From Desulfobacterales bacterium (lineage in GTDB: Bacteria; Desulfobacterota; Desulfobacteria; Desulfobacterales; JAHEIW01): a stretch of DNA of 64,000 bases. The notes beneath the pieces are model-generated. The model was given only the letters and a program-made list of their open reading frames with translations, was not told the DNA's origin and searched no databases. Positions 4,796 to 64,000 of the stretch are shown piece by piece. The stretch spans positions 4,037 to 68,036 of the forward strand of contig JASFNW010000005.1 in the NCBI GenBank assembly GCA_050116835.1. Direction: 5' to 3'. Numbering within the stretch: position 1 is the stretch's first letter; each line of letters starts with the position of its first letter. Position numbers and translations under genes: made by a program.

Positions 4796-4806
4796 GGAGA
4801 AGAATC

Positions 4807-19771: not shown

Positions 19772-19847
19772 TGGTGCCCCCGGCAGGGATCGAACCTGCG
19801 GCGCATGGATTAGGAATCCATTGCTCTATCCACTGAGCTACGGGGGC
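19772..19847 (-). tRNA. tRNA-Arg (anticodon CCT), CCA encoded
   Basis: GCCCCCGTAGCTCAGTGGATAGAGCAATGGATTCCTAATCCATGCGCCGCAGGTTCGATCCCTGCCGGGGGCACCA folds as a cloverleaf with anticodon loop TTCCTAA. Confidence 0.9.
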
Positions 19848-19860
19848 ATGTATAATAATT

Positions 19861-21081: not shown

Positions 21082-21530
21082 TACCTCCTTTCGCTTTTTG
21101 CAGAAAAAACAGGTAGATAATGACCTCGATAAACCGTTTAGTCAATTATCATTTTATGTCGTACAGGTTGGAGATATTGCAGGTTTTAGAACTGTAAAGA
21201 AGCTTATGTCACAGAGCAGATTAAAACCTGAGACTCTATGTCAATTATCAGTTTCAGACGACCAATCCTCAAGGAAGGATCCGGATTTATTAAGCTCAAA
21301 GATGATTTGCCGAGCGAATAGACGGCCAAAGGCCACCGAACCGAACCATCCAACATTGAATCTTATTGATGTCATGGTATCTGTACGACGCTATGAGCAT
21401 ATTTTCATCATCATGCCTCAGGCTGTAGTACATTGAGATTATGTTTAAGACCGAAAAACTCCAAATACCATAATCTTGTATCACAGATTTTCAGGGTCGG
21501 TCAATTTAACATAGAGTTGCAGTCGCAGGT

Positions 21531-22064
21531 CTATTGGGACTCTGAATTGTTGTCTTTATAAGGTTTTAAGCGTGGAATCCAGCGAGGTACAGAATTGCAA
21601 TACTGTTTGTAAGTGGATCCAAATTCTTCTGCTAATTGCTTTTCCTCCATAATTATATGGACATTGAAAATCCCAAACATCAGTAAGCAATAAATGAATA
21701 TGCCTCCAGATTGAAACAGCAAAGCTTCTCCTGCCAATACAAAAACACCAGCAATGTACAAAGGATTTCTAACAAATTTATAAAATCCAGTTACTATTAG
21801 TTCTTTAGTAGTTGGCGTAAAAGGTATTGGTGATCCTTTACCAACAAATACAAAACTAACAGAACAATAAAAGTATATCACACCACCGAGAACAATAGGA
21901 ACTATCCCAAGATACCGGAATACACCAATGTCAAAACGGTAAATATGCTCGGGTGATAAAAGTATTTGACGTGGTATCCAGATTAAAAAGAATGGTATTA
22001 CTAAAATTAAGAATAATAAGGTCCCCAATAATGCTGACAAAATTTCAGATGCTTTAGCCTTCAT
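21531..22064 (-). CDS. Membrane methyltransferase of the isoprenylcysteine carboxyl / phospholipid methyltransferase type
   Basis: It has multiple TM helices and GFYKFVRNPLYIAGVFVLAGEALLF. It lies in the low-GC islet. Confidence 0.65.
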   Translation of the reverse strand: MKAKASEILSALLGTLLFLILVIPFFLIWIPRQILLSPEHIYRFDIGVFRYLGIVPIVLGGVIYFYCSVSFVFVGKGSPIPFTPTTKELIVTGFYKFVRNPLYIAGVFVLAGEALLFQSGGIFIYCLLMFGIFNVHIIMEEKQLAEEFGSTYKQYCNSVPRWIPRLKPYKDNNSESQ

Positions 22065-22288
22065 TTTGTAGAACCTCAGAATTTTCTCTTAAAAATTTTC
22101 CTGGGCTCAAATTTTAAGATTATGATCAGATACTGATATATTTATAGAAACCCAAATATCGCAATTTTACAGATACATATCGAATATCGCAAGGTTTTTA
22201 GACAGCTGATATTTACATAGTTGTTGGATATCAAAGGCTTTGATGGTTTTTAGTTTAATATGACACGCAAAGAGTTAAATGTTTGGTT

Positions 22289-22699
22289 TCAAGGAATAAT
22301 AAGTTCAATTTCAACTCGTCGATTTAGACGTCTTCCTTCTGCACTTTTTTTGTTTGCAATAAATTTTTGGGCTCCATGACCGAAAGCCATCATTCGGGAA
22401 GGCTTAATCCCCTTACCCGATAGATAGCTCTTAACTGAAAGGGCCCTGATCTCAGAAACCTCTTGGTTATAGGAAGGAGGACCGACAGAATCCGAATAGC
22501 CATTGAGCGTCAACTTAACAGCTAAGTTAAATGCCAGAATTCTATAAAGCCGATCCAGTTTTTCAATGGCTTTGGGTGAAAGTTCATTTGAATTTTGCTC
22601 AAAAAAAATGCAGAAGTCTGAGTCAACTTTGTTTTCAGCTGACAAGGCAGCCAAGGCAAAGAAAAATGTGGTAGCAAAAATGGTTGCGAATACTTTCAT
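22289..22699 (-). CDS. OmpA-family protein with signal peptide
   Basis: The signal peptide is MKVFATIFATTFFFALAALSA. The OmpA-C-like core reads NGYSDSVGPPSYNQEVSEIRALSVKSYL...NRRVEIELI. Confidence 0.8.
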   Translation of the reverse strand: MKVFATIFATTFFFALAALSAENKVDSDFCIFFEQNSNELSPKAIEKLDRLYRILAFNLAVKLTLNGYSDSVGPPSYNQEVSEIRALSVKSYLSGKGIKPSRMMAFGHGAQKFIANKKSAEGRRLNRRVEIELIIP

Positions 22700-23010
22700 T
22701 CTACTAACCCCTTTATTACTTTTTTTCACTTAACATCAATATTAGATGGAACAATATCCCATCTACTGGCATGTTATCTTGTAAAATGGAATCTTTCTTA
22801 TAATTGTTCATTGTCCCAGATATCCTTCAAGTGGTGATACATTGAGAATAATTGTACTTCACCCATATTGCAGATATCTTCAAAAGACAATAAAAAATCC
22901 AGACCGATAGGACCGGGGCTTTTGATCTAAAAACTGTGCCTAAATTGTGCCCACTGAGCCTATTTTTTACTAAAATTACCTAACATTTCCCAACATCTAA
23001 AATAAAAAAA

Positions 23011-23058
23011 AGCCAATGAAATCATAGTATTTACTGAAATCATTGGCTTTTAATTTTT
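23011..23058. terminator. Bidirectional hairpin terminator just inside the islet boundary
   Basis: The stem AGCCAATGA/TCATTGGCT is flanked by A8 upstream and TTTTAATTTTT downstream. Confidence 0.5.
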
Positions 23059-23070
23059 GCCCTTATCGGT

Positions 23071-23108
23071 TTAGGAATCCATTGCTCTATCCACTGAGCT
23101 ACGGGGGC
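23071..23108 (-). repeat. Orphan copy of tRNA-Arg positions 1-38 (acceptor 5' strand through anticodon loop)
   Basis: ttaggaatccattgctctatccactgagctacgggggc is identical to 19810-19847. Similarity stops at the anticodon-loop edge. Confidence 0.85.
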
Positions 23109-23396
23109 TGATGAATGCCGAAAAGATGAATATGATACTCGCATAGCAAATCAACTTTCAGATTACAAGAACCTTGTCTACATTAGCCGCCTGACAGTTG
23201 AATTAAAAATCCGATCTCTCGGCAGGCGGCAATACGACAAATCTACGCTGATGGGCCTGTTGTTTCCGGTCAAAGATGGTTGCTAACGACCGGGGCTCTA
23301 TGATATATTCATATCTTAATCATTTTAATTGCTTACAAAACGGAAGCAGCATGTCTGCGATCTGATCATCTGTATTCAGCCATTGGAGATTTTCTT

Positions 23397-24338
23397 ATGC
23401 ACATTCGTAAACGTGTACTGGTGACCGGCGGGGCCGGGTTTCTCGGTTCATTTCTGTGTGAACGCCTCTTGAACGAAAAATGCGATGTGGTGTGCGTCGA
23501 TAATTTTTATACGGGAACCAAACGCAATATTGTCCACTTGTTGGACAATCCTTACTTTGAACTGGTGCGGCATGACATCACCTTTCCGCTTTATCTGGAA
23601 GTCGATGAAATCTATAATTTTGCCTGTCCGGCATCGCCGATCCATTACCAAAATGATCCGGTTCAGACCACCAAGGTCAATGTGCACGGATCCATCAATA
23701 TGCTCGGTCTGGCCAAGCGCACGCATGCGAAAATTTTACAGGCGTCGACTTCCGAGGTTTACGGTGACCCCGCTGTTCATCCCCAGACAGAAGACTACTG
23801 GGGTAACGTAAATTGCGTTGGCATTCGATCTTGCTATGATGAAGGCAAACGATGTGCCGAAACCCTTTTTTTTGATTATTATCGTCAGCATGACCTTAAT
23901 ATTCGGGTCGTCCGGATTTTCAACACTTACGGGCCCCGCATGCACCCCAATGACGGTCGCGTGGTCAGCAATTTTATTTTGCAGGCCCTTAAGAATGAAG
24001 ATATAACGGTTTACGGTGACGGCCGCCAAACGCGTTCTTTTTGCTATGTCGATGATATGATCGACGGTGTCATCCGAATGATGGATGCCCGCGATGGTTT
24101 TACCGGGCCGGTAAATTTAGGTAATCCGGAAGAGTTTACGATTCTTGAGTTGGCCGAAAAGATTATTGCGCTGACGCAATCCAATTCAAAAATTGTCTTT
24201 AAACCGCTTCCTCAGGATGATCCCCTGCAGCGCAAACCGAACATTGCGTTGGCCCAAAAAAAATTAAAATGGGAACCTCAAATACCATTAGATAAGGGGC
24301 TGAAACAAACCATCGATTATTTCAAGACCCTGCAATAA
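23397..24338 (+). CDS. UDP-glucuronate decarboxylase (UDP-xylose synthase)
   Basis: It carries [18 protein letters not shown]...[12 protein letters not shown]...[11 protein letters not shown], a short-chain dehydratase of the UXS type. Confidence 0.85.
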
Positions 24339-46741: not shown

Positions 46742-46816
46742 GCGGGAATAACTCAGTGGTAGAGTGCGACCTTGCCAAGGTCGAAGTCGCGGGTTCAAAT
46801 CCCGTTTCCCGCTCCA
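46742..46816 (+). tRNA. tRNA-Gly (anticodon GCC)
   Basis: GCGGGAATAACTCAGTGGTAGAGTGCGACCTTGCCAAGGTCGAAGTCGCGGGTTCAAATCCCGTTTCCCGCTCCA folds as a cloverleaf. Confidence 0.9.
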
Positions 46817-46824
46817 TTTTTTTT

Positions 46825-46899
46825 GGCGGCATAGCCAAGTGGTAAGGCAGCGGTCTGCAAAACCGCAATTCGTCGGTTCGACTCCGACTGCCGCCTCCA
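46825..46899 (+). tRNA. tRNA-Cys (anticodon GCA)
   Basis: GGCGGCATAGCCAAGTGGTAAGGCAGCGGTCTGCAAAACCGCAATTCGTCGGTTCGACTCCGACTGCCGCCTCCA folds as a cloverleaf. Confidence 0.9.
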
Positions 46900-51613: not shown

Positions 51614-53509
51614 ATGGAGCTAAAAAAACGATTTGCAGATAAGGTGATTGATGCAGCAACGGCTGTCTCCCATATTAAAAGCGGCAGCCGTGTGTTTATC
51701 GGTACCGGGTGCGGCGAACCCCAGCACCTGATCAAGGCCATGGTCAATGATGCATCTATTCAAGACATCATGGTCTATCAGATGCTATCATCGACATTTT
51801 CACGGTATATCGACGACGATTCATTTCGGCGCAGATTTTCTCCCAAGCTGTTCTTCATCAGCGATAGCATGCGCAAGGCTGCTTTTGAGGGTAAAATTGA
51901 CTATCTTCCGGCGTATTTGTCCCAGATTCCCCGGATGTTTGCCAGTCACCGCATCGGACTCGATGTGGCACTGGTTCAAGTCAGCCCTCCCGATAAATTC
52001 GGTTATTGCAGCCTGGGCGTTTCGGTGGACATCACCCGTTCAGGTCTGGAAAACGCCAGGCGGGTCATTGCCCAGGTGAATCCGCTCATGCCGCGTACCT
52101 GGGGGGATAGTTTTGTACATGTGGATGCGATCGACTGGCTGGTGCCTTTTGAAGAGCCCTTAGTGGAAATGTTTCCGGCCGTCAAGCACTCCGAGATAGC
52201 TCGGCGCATCGGGCATTTTGTATCTCAGCTGGTGGATGACGAGGCCACGCTTCAAATCGGATTCGGCCATTTGCCGATCGCGATCGTGCAGTCCTTGGAT
52301 ACCAAAAAGGATCTGGGCCTGCACACCCAATGGATCACCGATGGCCTGCTGCCGTTGTTTGAAAAAAAGGTGATTACCAACAAGAAAAAGTCGCTATTGC
52401 CGGACAGAGTGGTGGCTTCGTTGTGTATGGGCTCAAAAAAGCTATATGACTATGTGGACAACAATCCGGCCTTTTACTTCCGTTCTTCTGAATTTGTAAA
52501 TGATCCCACCGTAATTGCCCGCAACGATCATCTAATTTCCATTAGCTCAGCCCTGGAGGTTGATTTAACCGGTCAGATTTGTTCGGATTCTGTGGGGTAC
52601 ATGTTTTACAGCGGCATTGGAGATCAGGTTGACTTTCTAAGGGGCAGCTCCATGTCAAAGGGCGGATTTTCGATTGTGGCGTTGCCGTCTACGGCGCAGA
52701 ACGGAGCCGTTTCACGCATCGTGTCCCATTTGAGTCAAGGTGCCGGGGTTGCAACCACTCGCGGGGATGTCAACTTCGTTATTACCGAATACGGCATTGC
52801 CGAATTGCAGGGCAAGAGCATTTACCAGCGTGTCATGGAGTTGGCCCAAATTGCGCACCCGAAATTTCGTGAAGAGCTTATAGAGGTGGCCAAACAGCGT
52901 CATTACATATTTGCCGACCAGCTTCCGCCTTCAACCGAAGATTTACTGTTTCTGGAAGGCTACAAAAGTACTTTTACCCTGAAAAATGGAAAAGCCATTG
53001 AATTTAGGCCCCTGTTGCCTTCGGATGAAATTGCCTACCGAAATTTCTTTTACTCATTGCAGGAAAAAACCATATACATGCGATTTTTTTACCGGATGCG
53101 CTCCTTTTCGCATGAGGTCGTGCAAAAGCACTGGGCCAGCATCGATTATCGTAAAAATATGACTATCGTCGGCCTTGTGCAAAAAGGCGGCCACAAGGCG
53201 ATCATAGCGATTGGAACTTATGCGTACGATCAGGATCAACAGGCGGAAGTCGCTTTTGTTGTTCGTGAAGATTACCAGGGCCAGGGAATCGCGTCTTATC
53301 TTCTCAGCGTTCTTGAGCGGATTGCCAGAGAAAATCAGTATACGCGTTTTTCAGCAACGGTTCTGCGGGAAAACACTGCCATGATCCGGGTTTTCAAAAA
53401 GCGTTACCCAAATTTAAAAATTTCAACGCAAAACGGCAACGAAATTCTGATGACCATGGATATAGCGGACGTTCAGAAAAATCCAGAATCACCGTCCGAA
53501 AAATCCTAA
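51614..53509 (+). CDS. Acetyl-CoA hydrolase/CoA-transferase family domain fused to a Pat-type GNAT acetyltransferase
   Basis: The N-terminal roughly 430 aa carries IKSGSRVFIGTGCGEPQHL...SGIGDQVDFLRGS. The C-terminal GNAT reads AEVAFVVREDYQGQGIASYLLSVLERIARE...VLRENTAMIRVF. Confidence 0.8.
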   Translation: MELKKRFADKVIDAATAVSHIKSGSRVFIGTGCGEPQHLIKAMVNDASIQDIMVYQMLSSTFSRYIDDDSFRRRFSPKLFFISDSMRKAAFEGKIDYLPAYLSQIPRMFASHRIGLDVALVQVSPPDKFGYCSLGVSVDITRSGLENARRVIAQVNPLMPRTWGDSFVHVDAIDWLVPFEEPLVEMFPAVKHSEIARRIGHFVSQLVDDEATLQIGFGHLPIAIVQSLDTKKDLGLHTQWITDGLLPLFEKKVITNKKKSLLPDRVVASLCMGSKKLYDYVDNNPAFYFRSSEFVNDPTVIARNDHLISISSALEVDLTGQICSDSVGYMFYSGIGDQVDFLRGSSMSKGGFSIVALPSTAQNGAVSRIVSHLSQGAGVATTRGDVNFVITEYGIAELQGKSIYQRVMELAQIAHPKFREELIEVAKQRHYIFADQLPPSTEDLLFLEGYKSTFTLKNGKAIEFRPLLPSDEIAYRNFFYSLQEKTIYMRFFYRMRSFSHEVVQKHWASIDYRKNMTIVGLVQKGGHKAIIAIGTYAYDQDQQAEVAFVVREDYQGQGIASYLLSVLERIARENQYTRFSATVLRENTAMIRVFKKRYPNLKISTQNGNEILMTMDIADVQKNPESPSEKS

Positions 53510-54033: not shown

Positions 54034-54438
54034 TTGTCATACACGCTGGGTCAAAAACAACTCGATCGAATAGAGGATATTTTAAATCAGGATTTGATTG
54101 AAAATGGGGTCCGCTGCGTTTTTCTGATTGATATGGCCGGCAATATCATCGCGAACCTCGACAACGGGGAAAAACAGCACGATATCTATTCACTGGCAGC
54201 CTTAGCTGCCGGAAATTTCGGTGCAGTCAGTGCTATGGCCAAAATCATCGGCGAGAATGAATTTTCGTTGCTGTTTCACAAAGGTAAAAAAGAAAATATC
54301 CATTTCAACAAAATTACGACGGAATTTTTACTAATTACCATTTTCGGCAATGATATTTCATTAGGATTCTTACGATTGAAAGTCGCCGATTCCGTTGAGC
54401 AGCTAAAAACCATATTAGAACCGCTCCTGTCGCTGTAA
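54034..54438 (+). CDS. mglB: Roadblock/LC7 protein MglB (GTPase-activating partner of MglA)
   Basis: VFLIDMAGNIIANLD...SLAALAAGNFGAVSAMAKIIGENEF...ISLGFLRLKV aligns closely by eye with Myxococcus MglB. It has a TTG start after AGGAGGGG. Confidence 0.85.
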   Translation: MSYTLGQKQLDRIEDILNQDLIENGVRCVFLIDMAGNIIANLDNGEKQHDIYSLAALAAGNFGAVSAMAKIIGENEFSLLFHKGKKENIHFNKITTEFLLITIFGNDISLGFLRLKVADSVEQLKTILEPLLSL

Positions 54439-54496
54439 GACTATAATACCTGCTGTCTCGGCACTTAATTTGGATCTTCGTGCGTTAAACGATCAC

Positions 54497-55102
54497 ATGG
54501 CATTTGTAAATTTAAAAAATAAGGAAATCCAGGTAAAAATTGTCTATTACGGTCCCGGTCGAGGTGGCAAAACGACAAACCTGGAATATGTATATAGAAA
54601 GTTCCGGAAGCGTATCAACACCGAGATGGTCACGGTTAAAACTCACGGTGATCGTACACTTTTCTTTGACTTTTTACCATTCGATATCGGCATGATCAAT
54701 GGTTATGACGTCAAGATACAGCTTTACACTGTACCCGGCCAGGTCAAATATAACGCCACCCGGCGGTTGGTACTCAGAGGCGTGGATGGCATCGTTTTTG
54801 TGGCCGATGCAATGGCAGTCCGCCGCGAAAAGAATATTTTATCTTTAAAAAATCTTCAGGAAAATCTTGCCAACTATAAAAAGAGTATCTTCAAGATTCC
54901 GTGTGTCATGCAATATAACAAGCTCGACCTGTTAGAGCAAGGTATACCGCTGCTTCCGACCGATATTCTTGAAAATGATCTCAACAGCCAGCTTAAAAGG
55001 CCTTCTTTTTCCGCCAGCGCGTTGAAGGGCACCAATGTCGTAACGACCTTGAAAAAAATTATCTCAATGACCGTAGCGTCCATTAAGCGGGATTTGAAGT
55101 AG
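54497..55102 (+). CDS. mglA: Ras-like small GTPase MglA
   Basis: It starts MAFVNLKNKEIQVKIVYYGPGRGGKTTNLEYVY and carries DRTLFFDFLP. The MglA-specific G3 motif is LYTVPGQ and the G4 motif is QYNKLDL. Confidence 0.9.
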   Translation: MAFVNLKNKEIQVKIVYYGPGRGGKTTNLEYVYRKFRKRINTEMVTVKTHGDRTLFFDFLPFDIGMINGYDVKIQLYTVPGQVKYNATRRLVLRGVDGIVFVADAMAVRREKNILSLKNLQENLANYKKSIFKIPCVMQYNKLDLLEQGIPLLPTDILENDLNSQLKRPSFSASALKGTNVVTTLKKIISMTVASIKRDLK

Positions 55103-55111
55103 GAGGGTAAA

Positions 55112-55924
55112 TTGGCCGACAACACCAAAGACAATAACCTCGACTCGGAAATTGCCAAACGGCTCGATGATCTTTTCGGAGAAGGAGATAGCGCTTCTGA
55201 TGACGATCTCCCTGACGAATCTGAGGACAGGGCTTTGGCCGGAAATGAACCTCAAAAAGAAGAACCGGCGGCGGCTGCCGAAACGGAAATGTTAGATTTA
55301 AAAGAAGCGAACGCCGACAAAGCCGAAGTGGAAGATGTGCCGGATGATTATCCGCTGGCTGAATTGAAGAATTTGGTGCTTTCAATTGACTGGGAGATAA
55401 CCGATGAGGCATTGGCCAGTTTGCTGTCCGAAATAAACAGCCTTAAGAAAGCCTACGAGCAGGAAAAAATTGTATCGATGTTTTTACAGCTTCTGGCATC
55501 TCTGGGGCAATACATCAAAACAAACCGCGGCGATGCCCATCCGAAAACATTTAAGATTTTAAATTCGGTATTTGCACGCCTGGAAGAGGTTGTTCTCAAC
55601 AAAAGCATGACAGAGGCTGACAAGAAAAATTTATTACGCGCCGAAATGCAAAAATATAAACAGCTGCGAAATAAGGTTTCGCAGAAAAAAGCAGCCGCCG
55701 GAGGCCGCAAGGCTGCACCGACAGCAGCAAAAACAGAACAACCCGTTGCGGTGGCTTTGGATCAAAAAGCTGAGCGGCGGGATAACGTCCGAGCGCCGTC
55801 AGCCGATGCGGGTGCACCCTCTGCTGAAGCACTGGCAGAAGCCATAAAAGAGTTGAAACAATTTATTCATTCCGAATTAAATGCCCTAAAACAGGAATTG
55901 AGAAAACTCCAAAAATCTAAATAA
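55112..55924 (+). CDS. Acidic N-terminus / helical core / coiled-coil C-terminus protein (hypothetical)
   Basis: It has a TTG start 4 nt after AGGAGGG. Residues 1-80 are D/E-rich. The core reads LKNLVLSIDWEITDEALASLLSEINSLKK. The C-terminal heptads read ELKQFIHSELNALKQELRKLQ. Confidence 0.55.
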   Translation: MADNTKDNNLDSEIAKRLDDLFGEGDSASDDDLPDESEDRALAGNEPQKEEPAAAAETEMLDLKEANADKAEVEDVPDDYPLAELKNLVLSIDWEITDEALASLLSEINSLKKAYEQEKIVSMFLQLLASLGQYIKTNRGDAHPKTFKILNSVFARLEEVVLNKSMTEADKKNLLRAEMQKYKQLRNKVSQKKAAAGGRKAAPTAAKTEQPVAVALDQKAERRDNVRAPSADAGAPSAEALAEAIKELKQFIHSELNALKQELRKLQKSK

Positions 55925-56051
55925 CATTCCTTTAAATCCCCTTTGCCCGGAAGAGTAAGTCGCCGCAAGCGAATGGGATTTATTGTCAACCGCACCCATG
56001 CAGTTATTACGTTGATCCCAGGACTGGAAACGGCACCGTTGAGGTAGAATT

Positions 56052-56531
56052 ATGGATTTTTCGTCAAGCGAATTATCCGCCATGGTATTTAAGCGTGTCG
56101 TACGGCAAGATTTCGAAGAAGTCCCGCTCGATCGCCAAATGCTTTCCGTGTTCATGGAATTGGACGGAAAGACACCATTGGGCAGTGTGGCGCAGAAGGT
56201 TGGATTAACAATGAGTGCCATGCGCCAACTGATTGCCAAACTGATGCAAAGCGGGCTTGTCCAAAAGGTAGAGCAAGGTATCGCCACGCTGGACAAGGAT
56301 TTCTTCGACTATCTGGTCGTCCATCTATCGCTTGCTGTCGGACCTATTGCGCAGGTGCTGATAGAAGAGGAAGTTGCAAGCCTGGGTTACAAACTGGCGC
56401 ATTTTCCCGGGCATCGGGTTGCAGAACTCGTAGACAATTTAGCTCGTGAAATCCGACGGAAAGAAAAAAAGGACGTTTTCCTGAAATCAATGGCCGTTAA
56501 GATACGTAAAAAAAAATATCTGTCACCCTAA
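56052..56531 (+). CDS. Winged-helix-like small protein (hypothetical)
   Basis: MELDGKTPLGSVAQKVGLTMSAMRQLIAKLMQSGLVQKV resembles a MarR/TrmB-type wHTH. The C-terminal helical domain is unassigned. Confidence 0.5.
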   Translation: MDFSSSELSAMVFKRVVRQDFEEVPLDRQMLSVFMELDGKTPLGSVAQKVGLTMSAMRQLIAKLMQSGLVQKVEQGIATLDKDFFDYLVVHLSLAVGPIAQVLIEEEVASLGYKLAHFPGHRVAELVDNLAREIRRKEKKDVFLKSMAVKIRKKKYLSP

Positions 56532-56643
56532 GCAGCGTACTTGCTGTCTTTAACTCCTTTATGAAATCAATTTTGTGTCTAAGATTAACAGACAGCCGCC
56601 GGCCCATCGAATCGACTAGACATCTTTTTTGAGGAGCGCAACC

Positions 56644-57801
56644 ATGATTGTCATTTGCGAGGAATGCGGTAAAAAGTACCGGATCGACCCTTCAAAGATC
56701 AAAGGTGACGCTGCGCGCTTTAAATGCCGGGTGTGCATGCATATGATCATGGTCTCCAAACCATCACCTGTATCGTCGACAGCCGTGCCGGCTGACTTGT
56801 CCGACAGCGAGCCGACTACCGACTCAGGGTTAAAGGCGCCACCGACCGACGAGTCTGAGATCAAACTTGACCGAGTCGCCAGCGAACATGCTCAGGTCCA
56901 GGCAGCTCGCAAATCCGGCCCGTTGAATTTGCGCATCAAAATGCTGTTGCTGTTTTTCTTTATCCCATTGGCTTTGCTAATCGGTGCCAGCTTTCTGTAT
57001 CTATGGCAACAGGATAAATTGGCGACCCTGCTAACCGAACAAAGCACAAAAGTCGTCAACCAAATGGCAGAAGAAAAAATTGCAGATCTATCAACCGCCG
57101 TTGCCATTCAATGTCGGCTATATCTGCTGGCCAACCCGAACTTGGCCGAAGAAGACTTTATGAATGATATGGGCTTTAAAACCCTTGCTGTGCAAAAAGT
57201 CGGCTTAACCGGCTATACGGCGCTTTACGAGCTGCCGGATTTAGATGGTATCTGGCGCACTTGGGCGCATGTGAATCCAAAGATTGTCGGTATTGATATG
57301 GCAACATTGAAAGGACCAATGGGTCGGAATTTTCCCGGGTTCTGGAAAATATTCAGCGGCGTAAAAGGAGGCCAACGATCTCAAGGCTATTACACCTGGC
57401 AGGACAAGGACGGCCAATTTCGCGAAAAATTTATGGTCTGTACGCCGGTCGCCGGAACCCCGTATGTTGTTGCTGCGACGACCTATTTGGATGAATTTCA
57501 CGGACCGGTTCAACTTATGCAAAACCGTGCAGATGAGTTGACGAAAAAAACGCGCTGGATTATCTGGGCCATTCTGGGTGCAACTGTGGTGTTGATCGGA
57601 TTGATAGTCTCCATATACAGCCATCGGCTAACAACGAAAATCAAAAATTTAACCGATGTCGCTGAACGGATCAGCATCGGTGACCTTGGTATCGAAATCA
57701 AAGCCCACTCCAAAGATGAAATCGGTGAGCTGGCGGAAGCGATATCCAGAATGCAGGAGAGCATCCGCATGTCAATTGAGCGATTGCGGCGACGCCGATA
57801 A
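56644..57801 (+). CDS. MJ0042-type zinc ribbon - TM - periplasmic sensor (Cache-like) - TM - HAMP protein with no output domain
   Basis: The zinc ribbon reads MIVICEECGKKYRIDPSKIKGDAARFKCRVCMHMI. There are two TM helices. The HAMP domain reads LTTKIKNLTDVAERISIGDLG...DEIGELAEAISRMQ, and the protein ends 15 aa later. Confidence 0.7.
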   Translation: MIVICEECGKKYRIDPSKIKGDAARFKCRVCMHMIMVSKPSPVSSTAVPADLSDSEPTTDSGLKAPPTDESEIKLDRVASEHAQVQAARKSGPLNLRIKMLLLFFFIPLALLIGASFLYLWQQDKLATLLTEQSTKVVNQMAEEKIADLSTAVAIQCRLYLLANPNLAEEDFMNDMGFKTLAVQKVGLTGYTALYELPDLDGIWRTWAHVNPKIVGIDMATLKGPMGRNFPGFWKIFSGVKGGQRSQGYYTWQDKDGQFREKFMVCTPVAGTPYVVAATTYLDEFHGPVQLMQNRADELTKKTRWIIWAILGATVVLIGLIVSIYSHRLTTKIKNLTDVAERISIGDLGIEIKAHSKDEIGELAEAISRMQESIRMSIERLRRRR

Positions 57802-57908
57802 TTGCTCTTGTGTAATATCTTACACGACGGTCACTTCTCATTCAGCTCGGCCAGAAAAAAAGCCTAACAATTCGACGCCAAGAAAACAGTATTGTCCAAG
57901 GAGTCATA

Positions 57909-58907
57909 ATGGTTGTTATTCCAACTCAGCAGCCGGTACTTCAAAATTTAAATGCCTACTATCTTGATATTAGAAAACTGCTGGAGCATTTCCAGGGCGA
58001 AATCGGATCGGGCGGCATTCATTTTCAATCGCATAAAGCCGAGGGCGTGTTATTTTTCGATCAAGATCAGCTGCTGAGTGGTTTTTTGCAGGAAAAAAAT
58101 AACACTCTGTCAGGAAATGAAGCGATCGAACGTCTGCTGCAGGCAGGCAACGTCTATAATTTCAGCGTGACTGTCTATCATATTGATTCAGAAGAAGTAT
58201 ATTACTGGGCCGCTATTCAAGCAGCGGAAAAAATTTATAAAGATCTGAGTACAGAATTTACGGATCTGGAAGGACTCATTAAAAAAATGGGTTCTGAAAA
58301 GCTGACCGGCTATATTGATATCCGTATCGGCGACGGCGAACAAAAAGGTTTCATATTCCTGATCAACGGAAAAATCAGGGGGGGCTCGTGCTCCTGGGGC
58401 AACGGGATGCCAAGTCCATCCAGTGAGCATCAAGAGTTGCTCATCCAAAAAACCAAAGAATTCGGTGGTACCTTTAATGTTAGCCGAATTGATTTAAACC
58501 ATCTGCCCGCTGACAGCACTCCGACCGAAGAAGGTCAGACCCATTCAGAATCCGCAATTGTGATGTTGGAGGCCTTGCTGGTGATATTTGAAACAGTGGT
58601 TCGCGAAAATACCAAAAAAAAGACCAATTTTCAGAAGTTGCTCAAGCAAAACCTGGTCGAAAGTGCAGACCGTTTTGCTTTTCTTGATCCATTTGCAGGC
58701 GAATTCGAATACACCCAGCAAAGCATCGCCTTTTCAGGCCGCGCCAGCGATCGCGATTTGGTTCAGGGTGTCTGTGCGGTGGTAAAGAAAATGGCTCACG
58801 ACCTGGGCCTGTTATCAGCTCTGTTGCAAAAGTTGGAATCGTGGTCAGAAGAATATGTGGATGAATTGCTTTATTACGATATCAATTTGACTGAAATAGA
58901 CATGTAA
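57909..58907 (+). CDS. Hypothetical protein with two DUF4388-like modules
   Basis: Module 1 reads LDIRKLLEHFQGEIGSGGIHFQSHKAEGVLFFDQDQLLSG...GNEAIERLL. Module 2 reads LEGLIKKMGSEKLTGYIDIRIGDGEQKGFIFLINGKIRGG. Confidence 0.5.
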   Translation: MVVIPTQQPVLQNLNAYYLDIRKLLEHFQGEIGSGGIHFQSHKAEGVLFFDQDQLLSGFLQEKNNTLSGNEAIERLLQAGNVYNFSVTVYHIDSEEVYYWAAIQAAEKIYKDLSTEFTDLEGLIKKMGSEKLTGYIDIRIGDGEQKGFIFLINGKIRGGSCSWGNGMPSPSSEHQELLIQKTKEFGGTFNVSRIDLNHLPADSTPTEEGQTHSESAIVMLEALLVIFETVVRENTKKKTNFQKLLKQNLVESADRFAFLDPFAGEFEYTQQSIAFSGRASDRDLVQGVCAVVKKMAHDLGLLSALLQKLESWSEEYVDELLYYDINLTEIDM

Positions 58908-58956
58908 TCAAAAAAAACGTATCGCATGGTGCATTCCAAAATCAAAGTGCGGGACC

Positions 58957-60018
58957 ATGGCTGGTAAAAATTTGATAGATGGCAGAGATGATTCGGCTCG
59001 CCGGTATGCGGCGTTTTTTGACAATCTTCCGGCACCCCTGTTTCGTAGCACCGTCGAAGGTAAAATTATATATTGCAATCATGCGCTTGCCAGTTTACTG
59101 GGCTTTGACTCCGCTGTGGATCTCGTCGATGTTCCGGTCATTGAATTTTATCAGAACAAAAAAGATCGCGGGCAAATTATTCACACCGCCATCCAAACCG
59201 GTGGGGTTTTTGATCTGCCGGTGGCGCTCAAAAAAAAGGACGGGACTCCCATCTGGTGTGCGCTTTCCGCCAAAGCTATTTTTGATGATGACGGTAATGC
59301 CATTCATCTTGACGGTGTTTTAAAAGAAATAACATCTGAAATCGATTCTGATATTGATATGCCAAGAATCGTAGGACCCGCAGGAGATCTTAACCAGATC
59401 AGTATTAATTTCGATTTTCGAGGTGCGCTGATCAATGTGAACTCAGCTGCGGAAACTTTTTTTGGACTGCCCAAAGCTAAATTGTTGGGTAAATTGTTAT
59501 CCGAATTTCTAGCGCCCAGCGATCGCGACCTGTTCCTTATTTTTTTGGCTGATATCTTTAAAATCGGTCGCAGCGAAATTATTCTGTCCGTTCTGGACGG
59601 CAGCTCAAACGTGCACCACCTAAAATGTCAGGCCTATCTAATTAAAAGTAATGGCCGTGCAAACCATATTAAATGTATTACTAAAGATGTCACGCATATT
59701 ATAAAGCAACAACGACGAAAAGCGGAAAGCCAGAAATTTCAAGGTGTCCTGGAAATGGCTGGTGGTGTCGCGCATAGTTTGAACCAGCCCCTGACCATTA
59801 TCAATAATCAGATCAATGAAATAATGTCCGAATTTGAGCAGGATAGACGCCTGCATGGCAAAATGGTAAAGATACACAATCAGATCAAGAAAATGAATGA
59901 TATTACCGATAAATTAAGCAGGATTAAGAAGTATGAAGCAATGGATTATGTCGCCGGAATCAGAATCGTGGATATCGAAAAATCATCCTGGCCCCATGAT
60001 GGCGAGGAGGAAAGATGA
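58957..60018 (+). CDS. PAS-PAS-DHp histidine-kinase-like protein lacking a catalytic ATP-binding domain
   Basis: It has two PAS-like regions and then the H-box MAGGVAHSLNQPLTII. Only about 75 aa follow, with no N, G1 or G2 boxes. It overlaps the next gene as ATGA. Confidence 0.7.
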   Translation: MAGKNLIDGRDDSARRYAAFFDNLPAPLFRSTVEGKIIYCNHALASLLGFDSAVDLVDVPVIEFYQNKKDRGQIIHTAIQTGGVFDLPVALKKKDGTPIWCALSAKAIFDDDGNAIHLDGVLKEITSEIDSDIDMPRIVGPAGDLNQISINFDFRGALINVNSAAETFFGLPKAKLLGKLLSEFLAPSDRDLFLIFLADIFKIGRSEIILSVLDGSSNVHHLKCQAYLIKSNGRANHIKCITKDVTHIIKQQRRKAESQKFQGVLEMAGGVAHSLNQPLTIINNQINEIMSEFEQDRRLHGKMVKIHNQIKKMNDITDKLSRIKKYEAMDYVAGIRIVDIEKSSWPHDGEEER

Positions 60019-61058
60019 TTAAAAACGTTCTACTGGTGGATGATGATACGGAGATGCTGCACGCCCTCAAAGAGGGCTTCAAGCGTTATCAGGATTCCTT
60101 TGCGATTTTGCTGGCAGAAGACGGTCTAAAGGCCCTGGAGGTTCTCAAACAAAATATTATCTCCCTGGTGGTGACCGATCTAAAAATGCCCAATATGGAC
60201 GGTTTTGAGCTTTTGGCACACATCATGCAATATTATCCAGACATTCCGGTCATTATTATTACCGGTTACAGCACTCCTGAAATGGAGCAACTGGCGCGCG
60301 AAGGCGGCGCCGTTGGATATATTGCCAAGCCGTTTTTAATTGAAAATTTAGCCCGTCAAATTTTGACCACTTTAAGGAAGGAATCCGAGGGCGGCACGCT
60401 GCATAATATATCATCCGGCATGTTTTTGCAGCTGATCGAGATGGAACAGAAAACCTGCACGATTCGTTTGGAGGAAAAAACAGGCGGGAAAAAGGGAATT
60501 CTTTTTTTCAGCAACGGTGAATTGTTTGATGCCAGGATAAACAATATCCATGGCAAAGCTGCCGCACACGAAATTTTTTCATGGGATGCAGTCAATCTTT
60601 CCATTCAAAATGGTTGTGCCCTAAAAGAAAATAGAATTCAAAGCGACTTGCAGCCGCTCATCCTGGAGGCCATGCGACGCAAGGACGAAAAAGCGCCCAA
60701 ACCCATGCGCACCGAAGATGAGGAAGAGCCGGAGATCGTGCCCGAAGGCGTTATGGAACAGATTGAATCCGCGCCCGAGACGCCGGCTGAACGACTGAAC
60801 ACACTCAAGGCCAAAATCGAAGCAGAAATCGGACAACAAAGCGGTTTGGAAGATCTGTATCAGGATTCGCTCTGGGATTACCGTATCACCCAGCTATCGA
60901 GAATCGGTGAAATTTTCCAACTGGGTAAATTCATGCTGGCCTACATCGATCGGGGAGATGCCCATGATTACATTCTCATACCGGGCCAAAAAACCACTGT
61001 CGTCACGGTAGACCCCCGGTGTCCGCGAGATAAGATATTGCAGGTCATCAGCAGTTAA
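60015..61058 (+). CDS. Response regulator: REC - DUF4388 - C-terminal roadblock-like region
   Basis: The REC domain reads LLVDDD...VVTDLKMPNMDG...YIAKP. The DUF4388 domain reads GTLHNISSGMFLQLIEMEQKTCTIRLE...GILFFSNGELFDARINNIHGKAAAHEIFSWD. Confidence 0.8.
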   Translation: MIKNVLLVDDDTEMLHALKEGFKRYQDSFAILLAEDGLKALEVLKQNIISLVVTDLKMPNMDGFELLAHIMQYYPDIPVIIITGYSTPEMEQLAREGGAVGYIAKPFLIENLARQILTTLRKESEGGTLHNISSGMFLQLIEMEQKTCTIRLEEKTGGKKGILFFSNGELFDARINNIHGKAAAHEIFSWDAVNLSIQNGCALKENRIQSDLQPLILEAMRRKDEKAPKPMRTEDEEEPEIVPEGVMEQIESAPETPAERLNTLKAKIEAEIGQQSGLEDLYQDSLWDYRITQLSRIGEIFQLGKFMLAYIDRGDAHDYILIPGQKTTVVTVDPRCPRDKILQVISS

Positions 61059-61101
61059 ACTATAACGAGCGTTTTGAAATAAAAATATGGGACATACTTT
61101 T
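61053..61101 (+). repeat. 49-bp direct repeat, copy A (spans the stop codon of the REC-DUF4388 gene)
   Basis: agttaaactataacgagcgttttgaaataaaaatatgggacatactttt is identical to 61261-61309. Confidence 0.9.
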
Positions 61102-61260
61102 TATATCACGGAATTCTATCATTTTAATATTTTTATTTTAAAACCCTTCGGGCTTGCCGATTTTACCGCATCTACGGTGTTAGATGCCGTTTCGCATAGT
61201 TCACTATAGCGAAACGCCATCTGCCGTGTAGCTGCGGCAATCTCGACAAGCGCTCAATAT

Positions 61261-61309
61261 AGTTAAACTATAACGAGCGTTTTGAAATAAAAATATGGGA
61301 CATACTTTT
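61261..61309 (+). repeat. 49-bp direct repeat, copy B (runs into the TTG start of the roadblock-like gene)
   Basis: It is identical to 61053-61101, with a period of 208 bp. The intervening 159 bp contain a roughly 90-nt imperfect hairpin. Confidence 0.9.
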
Positions 61310-61655
61310 GCAGGAATTGTTTAAGGATATATTAAATACAGATGGCGTGACCGGCGTTATGCTGTTTGCAGCCAACGGGGATGTTCTTTTCAAAGAGTTC
61401 TCGACAACGGTCACTGAGGCGCCTGAACACCGGGATTGCCGATTCTTAATTGATTCATTGGAAGGTATGCGCGAAACCGACCTTATTTTTGAAAAGGGTC
61501 GCATTTATATTCGCAAAACCGAGATGGGGTTTCTGGTTGTATTCATGGCGCTCTATGTGCCGATTGCGATGATAAGATTAAATTGCGACATTCTTTTACC
61601 GTCTTTGCAGCCGTCAAAGCCGGGTCGAAAATTCGGCCGGTTCTTTAAAAAATAA
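61308..61655 (+). CDS. Roadblock/LC7-like small protein
   Basis: LNTDGVTGVMLFAANGDVLFKEF...GRIYIRKTEMGFLVVFMALYVPIAMIRL follows the roadblock fold pattern. It has a TTG start. Confidence 0.55.
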   Translation: MQELFKDILNTDGVTGVMLFAANGDVLFKEFSTTVTEAPEHRDCRFLIDSLEGMRETDLIFEKGRIYIRKTEMGFLVVFMALYVPIAMIRLNCDILLPSLQPSKPGRKFGRFFKK

Positions 61656-61705
61656 GCAGAATCCAACGCATTGTTCCATTTTAAATGAAAGGGTTATCCA
61701 GGTAA

Positions 61706-64000
61706 ATGAATACTGACATTGAATCCAAAATCAACGAGGCCGAAGTTTGCCGTTCAATGGGGCTGTTTGAGGACTCGCTCAAAATTTACGAAAATATTCT
61801 CGGCAACGTGTCCGAACAGGACAAACAGACCCAGGATACAATTCAAAAACGCATCCGGTTGCTCAAGCATGAAATCGACAATGAAGAGCAAACGGCGCCC
61901 AAAGGGGTCTCGGCGAAAGATATCACAATCCTACGGGAACGATTGTCCAACCAGGGCCAGGGAGACGTACCGGCCATTTTGGACAGTGCTTCAGCCTTCA
62001 AGGAAATGGGACTGCACGGAGAGGCCCTTCCGGAATACGCCAAGCTATTAAAAGAAGATTATCCGTTGAACAAGGTGATGCCGGAAATCAGCGAATGTCT
62101 CTTGAAGCTGCAATCCCCTTCAAAAGCATCCGAAAAACTGGACAGCCTTTTGAAACCGCTTAAACTTGATAAAGCCCGTACCGCCGACATTCTGTTCCTG
62201 TTCGGACAGGAAATGGAAAAGCGCGATCACCGTGAAGTGGCCCTTGACAACTACAGGGCGGCACATAAATTGAGTCCCGACAATGCTGAAATTAAGAAGC
62301 GGATGGACTCGGTTGCGGCCACTTTTACCACCGGCTCAAAATATGATTACCTGCTGCGCGAGAAATTGGTAACCACCCAGCAGTTGCAACAGGCGTTTGC
62401 ATTGGCCAAAAAGATGAACAAAAGCGTTGAATTTGTTCTGATTGAGCACAACAAAATCAATAAAGCGACCATCGGCAAATCCTTTTCACTTTTCTATGAT
62501 ACGCAGTTTCGCGATTACGACCCTTCTTTCACGGTGCCGGTTGAACTGCTATCCAATTTGAAAAAGGCATTTTTGCTGAACGAGTACTGGGTTCCCATGA
62601 GCTGGGACAAAGAGGGGGTCGAGATTTTGGTTGACGATCCACGGGATCTGAATAAAACCGACAACATCAGGACCCTGATGAAAACCAACCGGATTAATTT
62701 TACCGTCGCCATCCGCGAAGATATCGAGCAGTACATTAAACTGTTTTTTGACGGGGGACAACCGGGCGCCGAGGCGGCCACGCAGCAGCAGGCGCTCGAT
62801 GACTTTGATCTAATGCCGGATGTCTCGTTTGAAGAAGAAGAGGAAGAAGAAGAGGTCGACGCGGGCCTCGATGAGGCCTCCGGTAAAATCGTCAAGCTGG
62901 TGGATCAGACGGTCATTGCCGCCTACCGTAAAAATGCGTCGGATATCCATATTGAACCGTCATCCATCAGCAAATCAACGTCGATTCGCTTCCGTCTGGA
63001 TGGCGTCTGTCAGGAGTATCTCAAGGTCCCCAATTCCATGGCGCGCGGGATTGTATCCAGAGTCAAAATCATGTCAAACCTGGATATCGCCGAGCGGCGT
63101 CTGCCCCAGGACGGAAAGATAAAATTCAAACGTAAAGGTGTTCCCACCTTTGAGCTCCGTGTGGCCACCCTGCCGACTCAAGGTGGATTCGAAGATGTGG
63201 TGCTCAGAATTCTAGCCTCAGCCGGGGCGATGGAGCTCGACGAGATGGGCATGACCGAGCGCAATACCAAAGTTATGAAGCGTATCGTCGCCAAGCCCTA
63301 TGGACTGGTGCTGGCGGTGGGCCCCACCGGTTCGGGTAAAACCACCTCACTGCATGCGATTCTTGGCTACATCAACAAACCGGGCATTAAAATATGGACG
63401 GCTGAAGATCCGATCGAAATTACCCAGGGCGGGCTGCGCCAGGTTGAAGTGAAACCCAAAATCGGTCTGGATTTTGCTCGCGTGATGCGGGCTTTCCTCA
63501 GGGCCGACCCGGACGTCATCATGATCGGAGAAATGCGGGATGAGGAGACAGCCTCCATCGGCATAGAGGCTTCGTTGACCGGTCATCTGGTCTTTTCAAC
63601 CCTGCACACCAACAGCGCACCGGAAACCATTACCCGTTTGCTGGATATGGGGCTCAATCCCCTTAATTTTTCAGACGCCTTTCTGGGAGTGCTGGCCCAG
63701 CGGCTGACGCGTCGGTTGTGCAAAGACTGTATGGAAGAATATCCGTTGACCAAAGATGAATATGAGATGATTTACGTCGATTACGGCGAAAAATATTGGG
63801 CGCAAACCGGTATCGAATATGACCCGGACACAACCCTTTACCGGGCTGTAGGCTGCGATGCCTGCTCGAACACCGGCTATCGAGGTCGCATGGGTATCCA
63901 CGAGCTTATGGAAGGCACACCCAAAATCAAATTGATGATCAAAAAGCAGGCCAACACCGAAATGCTTTTTGCCCAGGCCATGAAGGAGGGCATGTCTACG
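61706..64000 (+). CDS. TPR-like N-terminus + T2SSE_N + GspE/PilB-family secretion ATPase (3' end outside the window)
   Basis: I translated the frame by hand from 61706 and it stays open to the window edge, so it is absent from the ORF track. The Walker A motif is GPTGSGKTT and the Walker B motif is DPDVIMIGEMRD. The His box is TGHLVFSTLHTN, and it has CKDC...CDAC. Confidence 0.85.
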   Translation, partial: MNTDIESKINEAEVCRSMGLFEDSLKIYENILGNVSEQDKQTQDTIQKRIRLLKHEIDNEEQTAPKGVSAKDITILRERLSNQGQGDVPAILDSASAFKEMGLHGEALPEYAKLLKEDYPLNKVMPEISECLLKLQSPSKASEKLDSLLKPLKLDKARTADILFLFGQEMEKRDHREVALDNYRAAHKLSPDNAEIKKRMDSVAATFTTGSKYDYLLREKLVTTQQLQQAFALAKKMNKSVEFVLIEHNKINKATIGKSFSLFYDTQFRDYDPSFTVPVELLSNLKKAFLLNEYWVPMSWDKEGVEILVDDPRDLNKTDNIRTLMKTNRINFTVAIREDIEQYIKLFFDGGQPGAEAATQQQALDDFDLMPDVSFEEEEEEEEVDAGLDEASGKIVKLVDQTVIAAYRKNASDIHIEPSSISKSTSIRFRLDGVCQEYLKVPNSMARGIVSRVKIMSNLDIAERRLPQDGKIKFKRKGVPTFELRVATLPTQGGFEDVVLRILASAGAMELDEMGMTERNTKVMKRIVAKPYGLVLAVGPTGSGKTTSLHAILGYINKPGIKIWTAEDPIEITQGGLRQVEVKPKIGLDFARVMRAFLRADPDVIMIGEMRDEETASIGIEASLTGHLVFSTLHTNSAPETITRLLDMGLNPLNFSDAFLGVLAQRLTRRLCKDCMEEYPLTKDEYEMIYVDYGEKYWAQTGIEYDPDTTLYRAVGCDACSNTGYRGRMGIHELMEGTPKIKLMIKKQANTEMLFAQAMKEGMST

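Follow-up and report, generated by a model that had tools for sequence, protein, structure and literature searches.

What would an MglA-MglB GTPase switch do beside a PilB-type motor ATPase in a stretch of DNA that is otherwise given over to housekeeping genes? This question is raised by a 64,000-nucleotide (nt) stretch from a Desulfobacterales bacterium (assembly GCA_050116835.1, contig JASFNW010000005.1, positions 4,037 to 68,036; hereafter the window), at the end of which, at positions 54034-64000, ten open reading frames (ORFs; here g1 to g10) lie co-directionally on the plus strand, where an original prediction made from the letters alone had placed ten co-directional genes. The cluster begins with mglB (g1) and mglA (g2) and ends with the ATPase gene (g10); between them are genes for two proteins with PATAN (DUF4388) domains (g6 and g8), a second roadblock protein (g9), and a set of sensor and adaptor proteins (g3, g4, g5, and g7). 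We report that the cluster represents a widely conserved, so far unstudied gene module in sulfate-reducing Desulfobacterales, and that it most likely governs the place and time at which its PilB-type ATPase acts on type IV pilus machines, the genes of which would lie elsewhere in the genome.

Conservation of the module and its association with type IV pilus genes

We searched with the g6 family through GTDB species, each represented by a single genome, and recovered 20 loci, all of them in metagenome-assembled genomes (MAGs) of uncultured Desulfobacterales or of organisms named 'delta proteobacterium'. The order g1 to g10 was the same in every scanned locus of sufficient length, apart from L020 and L023, which are without g7. 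Within the clade of the window the housekeeping flanks are syntenic as well (an EF-G paralogue, Smr, acetyl-CoA hydrolase, and rsmG), and for this reason synteny within that clade alone proves little. The distant loci L020 (34% identity in g6) and L023 (25-49% identity) nevertheless keep nine genes in order, and the genes flanking the cluster in L020 are entirely different from those of the window clade. The same nine genes in the same order, again with different flanks, are present in the closed genome of the cultured Desulfoluna limicola (AP024488.1; locus L108), where identities are 26-40% for g3, g4, g5, g6, g8, and g9 (26-35% when g5 is left aside, 28% for g6) and the ATPase is 53% identical over its full length, including its N-terminal domain. 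In all three loci the absent gene is g7, which is thus accessory. Co-conservation in other genomes had been proposed beforehand as a check on the cluster, and nine of the ten genes are indeed co-conserved as far as D. limicola, with different flanks in both L020 and Desulfoluna.

A scan of metagenomes with an alignment of the distant g6 subfamily recovered a further set of 80 loci, which share these families but arrange them in several ways. For 19 of these loci, the g6 homologue had 5 kb or more of sequence on either side; MglA and MglB were each present in all 19, a REC-PATAN protein in 18, the g4 family in 14, and the g9 and g5 families in 13 each. Because the same families recur in these well-flanked loci, the module has a conserved seven-gene core, consisting of MglA, MglB, the roadblock protein, the DUF8082 protein, the HAMP receptor, the REC-PATAN protein, and the double PATAN protein. 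Several members also occur as natural fusions: P0325 (591 amino acids) joins a receiver and a PATAN domain to a full g6-like double PATAN protein, which ties g8 and g6 functionally, and in two loci a receiver is fused to an MglB-like roadblock protein immediately upstream of mglA (L076, 7512-8480; L083, 1774-2739). Two or three MglA/MglB pairs lie within about 10 kb in L072, L074, and L092. In Desulfoluna the flanking genes include, upstream of the cluster (2474-4888), a second paralogue of MglA (sharing 56% identity with the protein of the window), a protein with PATAN and cyclic nucleotide monophosphate (cNMP)-binding domains, and a PilZ protein, and downstream (15132-16092) two more PilZ-domain proteins; the PilZ and cNMP-binding PATAN flanks hint at a cyclic-nucleotide input to the module.

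The original prediction had linked the cluster to a type IV filament machine whose remaining genes would lie beyond the window, and had suggested extending the contig downstream in search of pilC or pilMNOPQ. We read the sequence past the window end from a matching 106-kb contig of the Desulfobacterales MAG GCA_050118375.1 (5 mismatches in 12.7 kb). There the g10 stop overlaps rsmG (GidB; from window position 63999, L001 12771-13439), beyond which genes for a metallophosphoesterase, a tRNA-binding protein, and an RF-1-domain protein follow, these housekeeping genes lying on the opposite strand. The extension yielded no pilC or pilMNOPQ gene in the 7.6 kb past the window, so that pilus genes just past the window edge were rejected, and the window itself holds no PilC, PilM, PilN, PilO, PilP, or PilQ homologue, the rest of it being housekeeping genes. 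A GidB-SpoU fusion gene also lies about 1.8 kb upstream of the cluster in L020, on the opposite strand (2989-4509), a recurrence that may be coincidence.

The link to a type IV filament machine itself was borne out elsewhere, in 19 distant metagenomic loci where the core module lies directly upstream of pilMNOP(Q). In L038, for example, the gene order is secretin, PilB-like, PilC, radical SAM, an unknown protein, a TPR protein (opposite strand), g9-like, PATAN-DUF8082, REC-PATAN, double PATAN, MglB, MglA, X-CheW (a g3-related protein described below), PAS kinase, sigma54 regulator, PilM, PilN, PilO, PilP, and AMIN-PilQ, and in L050 the module follows PilY1 and a TPR protein and precedes, after further genes, PilM and PilN. 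In these two loci, which were annotated by Pfam, a PilS/PilR-like kinase-regulator pair stands between the module and pilM.

The GTPase switch and the PilB-type ATPase

The MglA protein (g2) aligns over its full length to the solved structures of T. thermophilus and M. xanthus MglA (3t12_A, E-value 1e-51; 6hjh_A, 6e-50). It retains the P-loop GPGRGGKT at residues 19-26, R53 within DRTLFFDF, TVPGQ with T78 and Q82, and NKLD at 141, and with the arginine finger Arg53, Thr78 in place of Asp in TxxGQ, and the catalytic Gln82 it has the defining features of Group 1 MglA. The stop codon of mglB lies 58 nt upstream of mglA, placing the cognate pair side by side. MglB (g1) matches Pfam Robl_LC7 (33.1 bits, cut-off 23), M. 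xanthus MglB (6h5b_B, E-value 1.2e-19, over residues 16-134), and Thermus MglB (E-value 9e-12), and is 97-99% identical throughout the window clade. It ends at the equivalent of M. xanthus MglB residue 136 and is without the C-terminal extension of that protein, a helix which in M. xanthus contacts MglA and the GltJ zinc ribbon. Its score against the NCBIfam MglB equivalog NF052242 (65 bits, cut-off 200) is read as divergence from a Thermus-type model, and not as exclusion. Judged by these alignments and motifs, g2 is predicted to be a complete GTPase switch and g1 its roadblock GTPase-activating protein (GAP), in agreement with the initial calls of mglB and mglA and of the kept TVPGQ and DRTLFFDF motifs.

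The ATPase gene g10 had been described as a TPR/T2SSE_N/GspE-PilB ATPase cut by the window edge, and, apart from the TPR part, which is taken up below, this description holds: the full-length protein has 790 amino acids, ending at window-equivalent position 64078 on the matching contig, with MshEN (38.6 bits) and T2SSE (383 bits) above the Pfam thresholds and an extra N-terminal repeat domain of 213 amino acids. Residues 214-789 match Geobacter PilB (5tsg, its residues 28-585) with an E-value of 8e-103, the best match in the PDB. Given its Walker A (539), Walker B (604), and His box (625) motifs and the tetracysteine pair CKDC/CDAC (672, 717), g10 appears to be a catalytically intact PilB-like ATPase. 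Binding of cyclic di-GMP by its MshEN domain was considered and rejected, as the tandem RLGxx(L/V/I)(L/V/I)xxG...Q motif is absent; the RLG positions read KYD and SVE, and the score against NF053729 is 20.9 bits (cut-off 38).

The N-terminal repeat domain of g10 matches TPR models weakly (TPR_14, E-value 0.0097; MamA model, 6e-6). For this and other distant comparisons we used hhalign, which was uninformative with shallow alignments and gave significant results only after these had been deepened with metagenomic homologues. Residues 5-210 of g10 then aligned to residues 94-307 of a stand-alone TPR protein (95.4%, E-value 1.8e-8) that is encoded divergently beside the modules embedded among type IVa pilus (T4aP) genes and that has strong TPR_1, TPR_2, and TPR_8 matches. 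As the N-terminus of g10 is homologous to this protein, a TPR partner has probably been fused to a PilB paralogue in the window lineage.

PATAN, roadblock, and sensory proteins and the surrounding sequence

The double PATAN protein g6 falls below the Pfam threshold for PF14332 (16.3 bits, E-value 0.01), and its assignment comes from its relatives and from its internal repeat. Among 34 diverse full-length relatives, 18 match DUF4388 (best E-value 8e-20), either at residues 19-80 or at residues 117-250. With hhalign, the N and M repeats align to each other (99%, E-value 1e-18) and to the PATAN domain of g8 (M repeat 92.5%, E-value 5e-7; N repeat 71%, E-value 4e-5). The family comprises 573 clusters at 50% identity, nearly all of about 330 amino acids, and its conserved C-terminal region carries the signature FLDPFAGEFxY. 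These matches identify g6 as a double PATAN protein, as the initial label of double DUF4388-like protein had it. Searches of the PDB by sequence with g6 and g9 profiles returned nothing, and no PATAN structure was detectable there by sequence.

For g8 the original prediction had given a REC / DUF4388 / roadblock-like architecture. Pfam matches establish the first two domains (Response_reg, 88.6 bits, residues 5-115; DUF4388/PF14332, 54 bits, cut-off 25, residues 127-226), and the residues needed for receiver phosphorylation are present (Asp9-11, Asp55, Thr83, and Lys105). The roadblock-like C-terminus was not confirmed: the AlphaFold2 model of residues 123-347 is poor (predicted local distance difference test, pLDDT, 56), no Foldseek match fell below an E-value of 0.05, and hhalign gave E-values of 0.004 against g9 and 0.022 against MglB, with controls at 0.1-0.8. 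The small protein g9, for which Pfam alone is insufficient (Robl_LC7 matches are sub-threshold, best E-value 0.012), does adopt a roadblock fold in its AlphaFold2 model (pLDDT 74, predicted template modelling score 0.68, topology a-b-b-a-b-b-b-a). Its best 50 Foldseek matches in the PDB are all folds of the roadblock/LC7 superfamily (E-values 7e-5 to 3e-3, TM-scores 0.6-0.7), including LAMTOR, Asgard Roadblock, Streptomyces Robl, and MglB, with one coatomer zeta of the related longin fold, and hhalign aligns it to MglB (74%, E-value 2.8e-5), all in keeping with its first description as roadblock-like. The basic-aromatic tail of g9 is kept in all clusters that we class as type A, Desulfoluna included, and not elsewhere, and may bind the membrane or a partner. 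Of the up to three roadblock partners and three DUF4388 modules counted initially, the three PATAN domains and two roadblock proteins stand, and a third roadblock domain in the g8 C-terminus is unproven.

The acidic protein g3 has no Pfam or NCBIfam match and no CheW domain. It aligns to the N-terminal 288 residues of 452-residue proteins that we call X-CheW (hhalign 95.5%, E-value 1.5e-8; controls 0.25-0.43), which are encoded after mglA in the T4aP-embedded modules and carry a CheW-like domain at their C-terminal end. The N-terminus of g4 is weakly winged-helix, with a weak HTH_IclR match and PDB winged-helix profile matches at E-values of about 0.003, so that its earlier description as winged-helix-like, although below Pfam thresholds, receives weak support. 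In other lineages, g4 homologues of 262-267 amino acids have a PATAN domain (DUF4388, E-value 2.7e-20) fused ahead of the g4-like part.

The membrane protein g5 had been read as a zinc ribbon / Cache-like / HAMP protein. Its zinc ribbon (Zn_ribbon_4, 37 bits, cut-off 30.3; TIGR02098, 23.8 bits, cut-off 20.9) and HAMP domain (42 bits) are above cut-off and two transmembrane (TM) windows are found, at about 94-122 and 303-327; the periplasmic Cache-like domain of roughly 185 residues is matched weakly (Cache_3-Cache_2, E-value 0.0017). The zinc ribbon is cytoplasmic, with Cys5, Cys8, Cys28, and Cys31, and is followed by a flexible acidic linker. Its best PDB matches are 2nb9_A, a 49-residue protein that we take to be Caulobacter ZitP (E-value 0.005), and 7zok_A, AgmX/GltJ (E-value 0.012). 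We rejected a methyl-accepting chemotaxis protein, as no signalling domain of that class follows the HAMP domain; g5 ends 10 residues past it, and the CtpM model is matched over its N-terminal 281 of 558 positions only.

The call of g7 as a PAS-PAS-DHp protein lacking an ATP-binding kinase domain proved sound. PAS_9 (E-value 1.5e-22) and HisKA (E-value 0.0032, 17.9 bits) are matched, the phospho-acceptor histidine lies in HSLNQPL, and no HATPase_c domain is present, so that g7 is not a full sensor histidine kinase. All 15 orthologues have 344-354 amino acids, 13 of them exactly 353, and because this length is conserved a pseudogene or truncated kinase was rejected. In L020, a REC-PAS protein (14902-15759) starts at the stop codon of the ATPase gene and may replace the PAS-DHp protein as an input element.

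Table 1 Genes of the cluster with their coordinates in the window and predicted features.
Gene	Position	Strand	Length (amino acids)	Features
g1 (mglB)	54034..54438	+	134	Predicted roadblock/LC7 GTPase-activating protein
g2 (mglA)	54497..55102	+	201	Predicted Ras-like GTPase
g3	55112..55924	+	270	Acidic N-terminus, conserved helical domain, C-terminal coiled-coil region
g4	56052..56531	+	159	Winged-helix-like and conserved helical domain, DUF8082 (PF26309, precomputed Pfam)
g5	56644..57801	+	385	MJ0042-type zinc ribbon, linker, TM1, Cache-like domain, TM2, HAMP
g6	57909..58907	+	332	Double PATAN: duplicated DUF4388-like domain and conserved C-terminal region
g7	58957..60018	+	353	PAS-PAS-DHp, phospho-acceptor His273
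g8	60015..61058	+	347	REC-PATAN and C-terminal domain of about 90 amino acids
g9	61308..61655	+	115	Small roadblock-fold protein, basic-aromatic C-terminal tail RKFGRFFKK
g10	61706..64000 (window edge)	+		TPR-like domain 1-213, MshEN/N1, PilB/GspE-type ATPase

With the likely true starts, the gaps from g1 to g10 are 58, 9, 127, 112, 107, 49, -4, 249, and 50 nt, the negative value being a 4-nt overlap of the g7 stop with the g8 start. For g2 and g5 we used the ATG codons listed in Table 1 and not the starts of the mechanical ORFs (TTG at 54470 and position 56629, respectively). Promoter and terminator consensus scans of the cluster did not rise above shuffled-sequence expectation, and of the plus-strand terminator-like sites one alone falls in an intergenic gap, a weak 5-pair stem that separates g1 from g2. 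At gathering thresholds, Rfam gave no match in the cluster and three tRNAs only in the whole window, and pairwise BLAST among the ten proteins revealed no internal paralogy. The gap between g8 and g9 is unusually long (249 nt, against 5-61 nt in L007, L009, L011, L014, and L021) because it holds a 159-nt insert flanked by a perfect 49-nt direct repeat (61053-61101 and 61261-61309), which covers the g8 stop codon and reaches the g9 start. Within the insert, at about 61166-61250, lies a long, imperfect hairpin. The insert may have arisen by local duplication, or it may be a small mobile insertion that duplicated an unusually long target.

The gene immediately upstream of g1, at 51614-53509, encodes a 631-residue protein in which acetyl-CoA hydrolase/transferase domains are fused to a GNAT acetyltransferase domain; it is syntenic in the window clade and is not beside the cluster in L020 or Desulfoluna. 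Further away in the window, a tRNA gene (19775-19847, minus strand) adjoins a phage-type integrase gene (19861-21081, minus strand) that borders a stretch of low guanine-cytosine (GC) content (GC 0.40-0.43 at 20-24 kb, against about 0.48 elsewhere), and genes for a sugar-nucleotide epimerase and dehydratase lie near 19775-24000; this region is probably an integrated element or genomic island. Two tandem tRNA genes, 12 nt apart, occupy 46742-46896.

Proposed function and comparison with known systems

On balance, we favor the interpretation that the cluster is a module for the polarity and activation of type IV pili that has a TPR-PilB protein of its own. The wiring that we propose is based on the binding of MglA-GTP to TPR proteins and of PATAN domains to PilB1 and PilC in other systems. 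In Myxococcus, MglA-GTP binds TPR12-14 of SgmX (PMC7668184), and SgmX is needed for PilB function, with no direct SgmX-PilB contact detected (PMC11580455); in Bdellovibrio, MglA binds the TPR protein Bd2492 (PMC3983030). In Synechocystis, a PATAN domain binds the N-terminal domain of PilB1 and also PilC, and PATAN-GspE_N fusions were noted in 2021 (bioRxiv 10.1101/2021.06.11.447907). By analogy with SgmX and Bd2492, MglA-GTP would engage the fused TPR domain of g10, recruiting or licensing the ATPase, and MglB, possibly together with g9 and the g5 zinc ribbon, would switch MglA off. Like PixE-type PATAN domains, which bind PilB1, those of g8 and g6 may bind the ATPase at its N1 region, and phosphorylation of the g8 receiver could modulate this contact. 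The DHp protein g7, being without an ATPase domain, might act as a phosphatase or phosphotransfer partner of g8, and g5, g3, and g4 would pass a signal from the envelope or the environment to the switch, with no classical kinase as output.

Several observations weigh against this interpretation. Each of its protein-protein steps is inferred, and the module is without a gene for a kinase of the g8 receiver. The TPR relative of the g10 N-terminal domain is itself uncharacterized, and the domain has no demonstrable kinship with SgmX or Bd2492. The GltJ zinc ribbon binds MglB, raising GAP efficiency fourfold, and the adjacent linker binds MglA-GTP (PMC11135422), but the zinc ribbon contacts the MglB C-terminal helix, which g1 is without. 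The ATPase scores below both NCBIfam equivalog cut-offs (PilB TIGR02538, 465.8 of 675.65 bits; GspE TIGR02533, 444.8 of 630.25 bits). Finally, no pilin or PilT gene, nor any for PilC or PilMNOPQ, is found in the 64-kb window or the 7.6 kb downstream, and loci of types D and E show no pil genes within the short spans that were fetched.

Some of these points would fit a different target, in that the module may control another PilB/GspE-driven machine, such as a type II secretion-like system, a competence or MSH-type pilus, or another type IV filament, with MglAB providing spatial control of that machine and not of a motility T4a pilus. The nearly equal scores of g10 for PilB (466 bits) and GspE (445 bits), neither of which reaches its cut-off, are compatible with this, as are the detachment of type A clusters from pilMNOPQ genes and the arrangement in L038, where the PilB-like and PilC-like genes adjoin a separate secretin that is distinct from the AMIN-PilQ gene. 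However, the solved protein that best matches the full extent of PilB, N1 included, is the T4aP PilB of Geobacter and Myxococcus, the related module lies beside pilMNOP(Q) in 19 loci and, in the two loci annotated by Pfam, is separated from pilM by the PilS/PilR-like pair, which are T4aP hallmarks, and the known outputs of both MglA and PATAN are T4aP; we regard a different machine as unlikely. A broader possibility is that the seven-gene core is a general polarity or envelope-signalling switch, a 'bacterial G-protein receptor system' like the conservons, whose outputs vary by lineage and for which the ATPase would be one of several effectors, or a secondary acquisition without a dominant role. 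The informative neighbors of the core are T4aP genes, and in type A clusters the ATPase has been kept in position down to 53% identity and fused to its TPR partner, both of which speak against such generality. The core is present in type D and E loci, in some cases along with two or three MglA/MglB pairs, and no pil genes lie within reach there, but the fetched spans are short. The receptor-like TM-HAMP protein and the adaptor-like proteins recall conservons, which pair a sensor with a roadblock protein and a GTPase (PMC4316618), and the PilZ and cNMP-binding PATAN flanks in Desulfoluna suggest second-messenger cross-talk, so that a general switch, while rather improbable in our view, accounts for part of the data.

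That the ten genes are adjacent only through shared descent of close genomes, and form no functional unit, we consider very improbable. The flanking housekeeping genes are syntenic in the window clade and consensus scans cannot prove a single transcript, which would accord with mere descent, yet the cluster is kept in L020 and Desulfoluna with entirely different flanks, the same families occur in rearranged orders in distant lineages, multiple domain fusions join its members, and the gaps are short, with g7 and g8 overlapping by 4 nt. A further interpretation is conceivable, which we put forward tentatively and with more doubt than belief: the core would be an unrecognized, widespread, kinase-less 'receptor-to-G-protein' pathway of bacteria in which the TM HAMP receptor and its adaptors set the nucleotide state or location of MglA directly, and in the window lineage MglA-GTP would act on a dedicated PilB paralogue through the fused TPR domain. 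If true, g10 would be a natural 'Rosetta stone' for the MglA pathway, indicating direct contact between its TPR step and the ATPase that extends the pilus.

The original prediction had not recognized the gene set as a described system. In the literature that we found, the coverage of which is incomplete, there is no description of the seven-gene core, the double PATAN family, DUF8082, the tailed roadblock partner, the HAMP partner, the T4aP embedding, or the TPR-PilB fusion, and searches for literature on DUF8082, on Desulfoluna with MglA, and on Desulfoluna limicola found nothing relevant. The set is nevertheless less unprecedented than this suggests, since an association of MglAB with PATAN and the binding of PATAN to PilB have already been published. 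For MglA of Groups 1 and 5, earlier studies had remarked on an 'occasional' co-occurrence of mglA/mglB and PATAN genes (Makarova et al. 2006; Wuichet and Sogaard-Andersen 2014). The module does not amount to a new principle. As a system it is well supported, and it is open to experiment, D. limicola being cultured and having a closed genome. It offers a conserved set of MglAB partners outside Myxococcota, including the uncharacterized double PATAN family and DUF8082, and it points to surface behavior or pilus regulation in abundant sediment sulfate reducers.

Among known systems, the actinobacterial conservons (CvnA-D) differ in having a different MglA group, a full histidine kinase-like sensor, no PATAN domain, and no link to an ATPase or pilus. 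The cyanobacterial PatA-type regulators PixE, PixG, and PilG share with the module the combination of PATAN and receiver domains and the genomic tie to a PilB-type ATPase; in the cyanobacterial regulators the output role falls to PATAN, which binds the N-terminal domain of PilB1 (bioRxiv 10.1101/2021.06.11.447907). In contrast to their PATAN-REC arrangement, however, g8 is REC-PATAN with an extra C-terminal domain, the module has an additional receiver-less double PATAN protein in g6, and its coupling is to MglAB, whereas theirs is to a CheA-based Tax/Pil-Chp chemosensory system. The receptor g5 resembles GltJ (AgmX), a zinc ribbon switch of the gliding machine in Myxococcus, and probably ZitP, a zinc-finger regulator of pili in Caulobacter, in that it is a membrane protein whose cytoplasmic N-terminus forms a zinc ribbon of four cysteines (5/8/28/31) ahead of an acidic linker, although this similarity is weak (E-values 0.005-0.012) and the linker of g5 leads into a TM, Cache-like, TM, and HAMP arrangement where GltJ has a GYF domain and a TonB-like region. 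The GltJ zinc ribbon has itself been described as resembling that of ZitP (PMC11135422).

A further parallel is with the Myxococcus polarity module, in which SgmX, FrzS, and SopA lead to PilB. In both, MglA is of orthologous grade and its catalytic residues carry the same numbers, the adjoining upstream gene encodes a roadblock MglB, and a TPR or TPR-like module and a PilB-type ATPase are the presumed output; the extra roadblock paralogue g9 stands in the position that MglC holds there. No counterparts of RomR, RomX, RomY, FrzS, or SopA are obvious in the cluster, in which no search for them was made, and by inspection no cluster protein has the RomR architecture of a receiver, a Pro-rich region, and an acidic tail. 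The two modules also differ in that g1 is without the MglB C-terminal helix and in that the partners here are PATAN proteins, a DUF8082 protein, a HAMP receptor, and a DHp-only protein. In Myxococcus, the way in which MglA-GTP and its TPR effector activate the ATPase for pilus extension is still an open question, and a TPR-like domain fused to a PilB paralogue and encoded together with MglAB, PATAN, roadblock, and receptor proteins provides testable interaction hypotheses for it. SgmX is a separate protein with 14 TPRs, whereas here the TPR domain is fused to the ATPase, and Myxococcus mglBA is a two-gene operon, whereas here all of the partners are encoded in one cluster.

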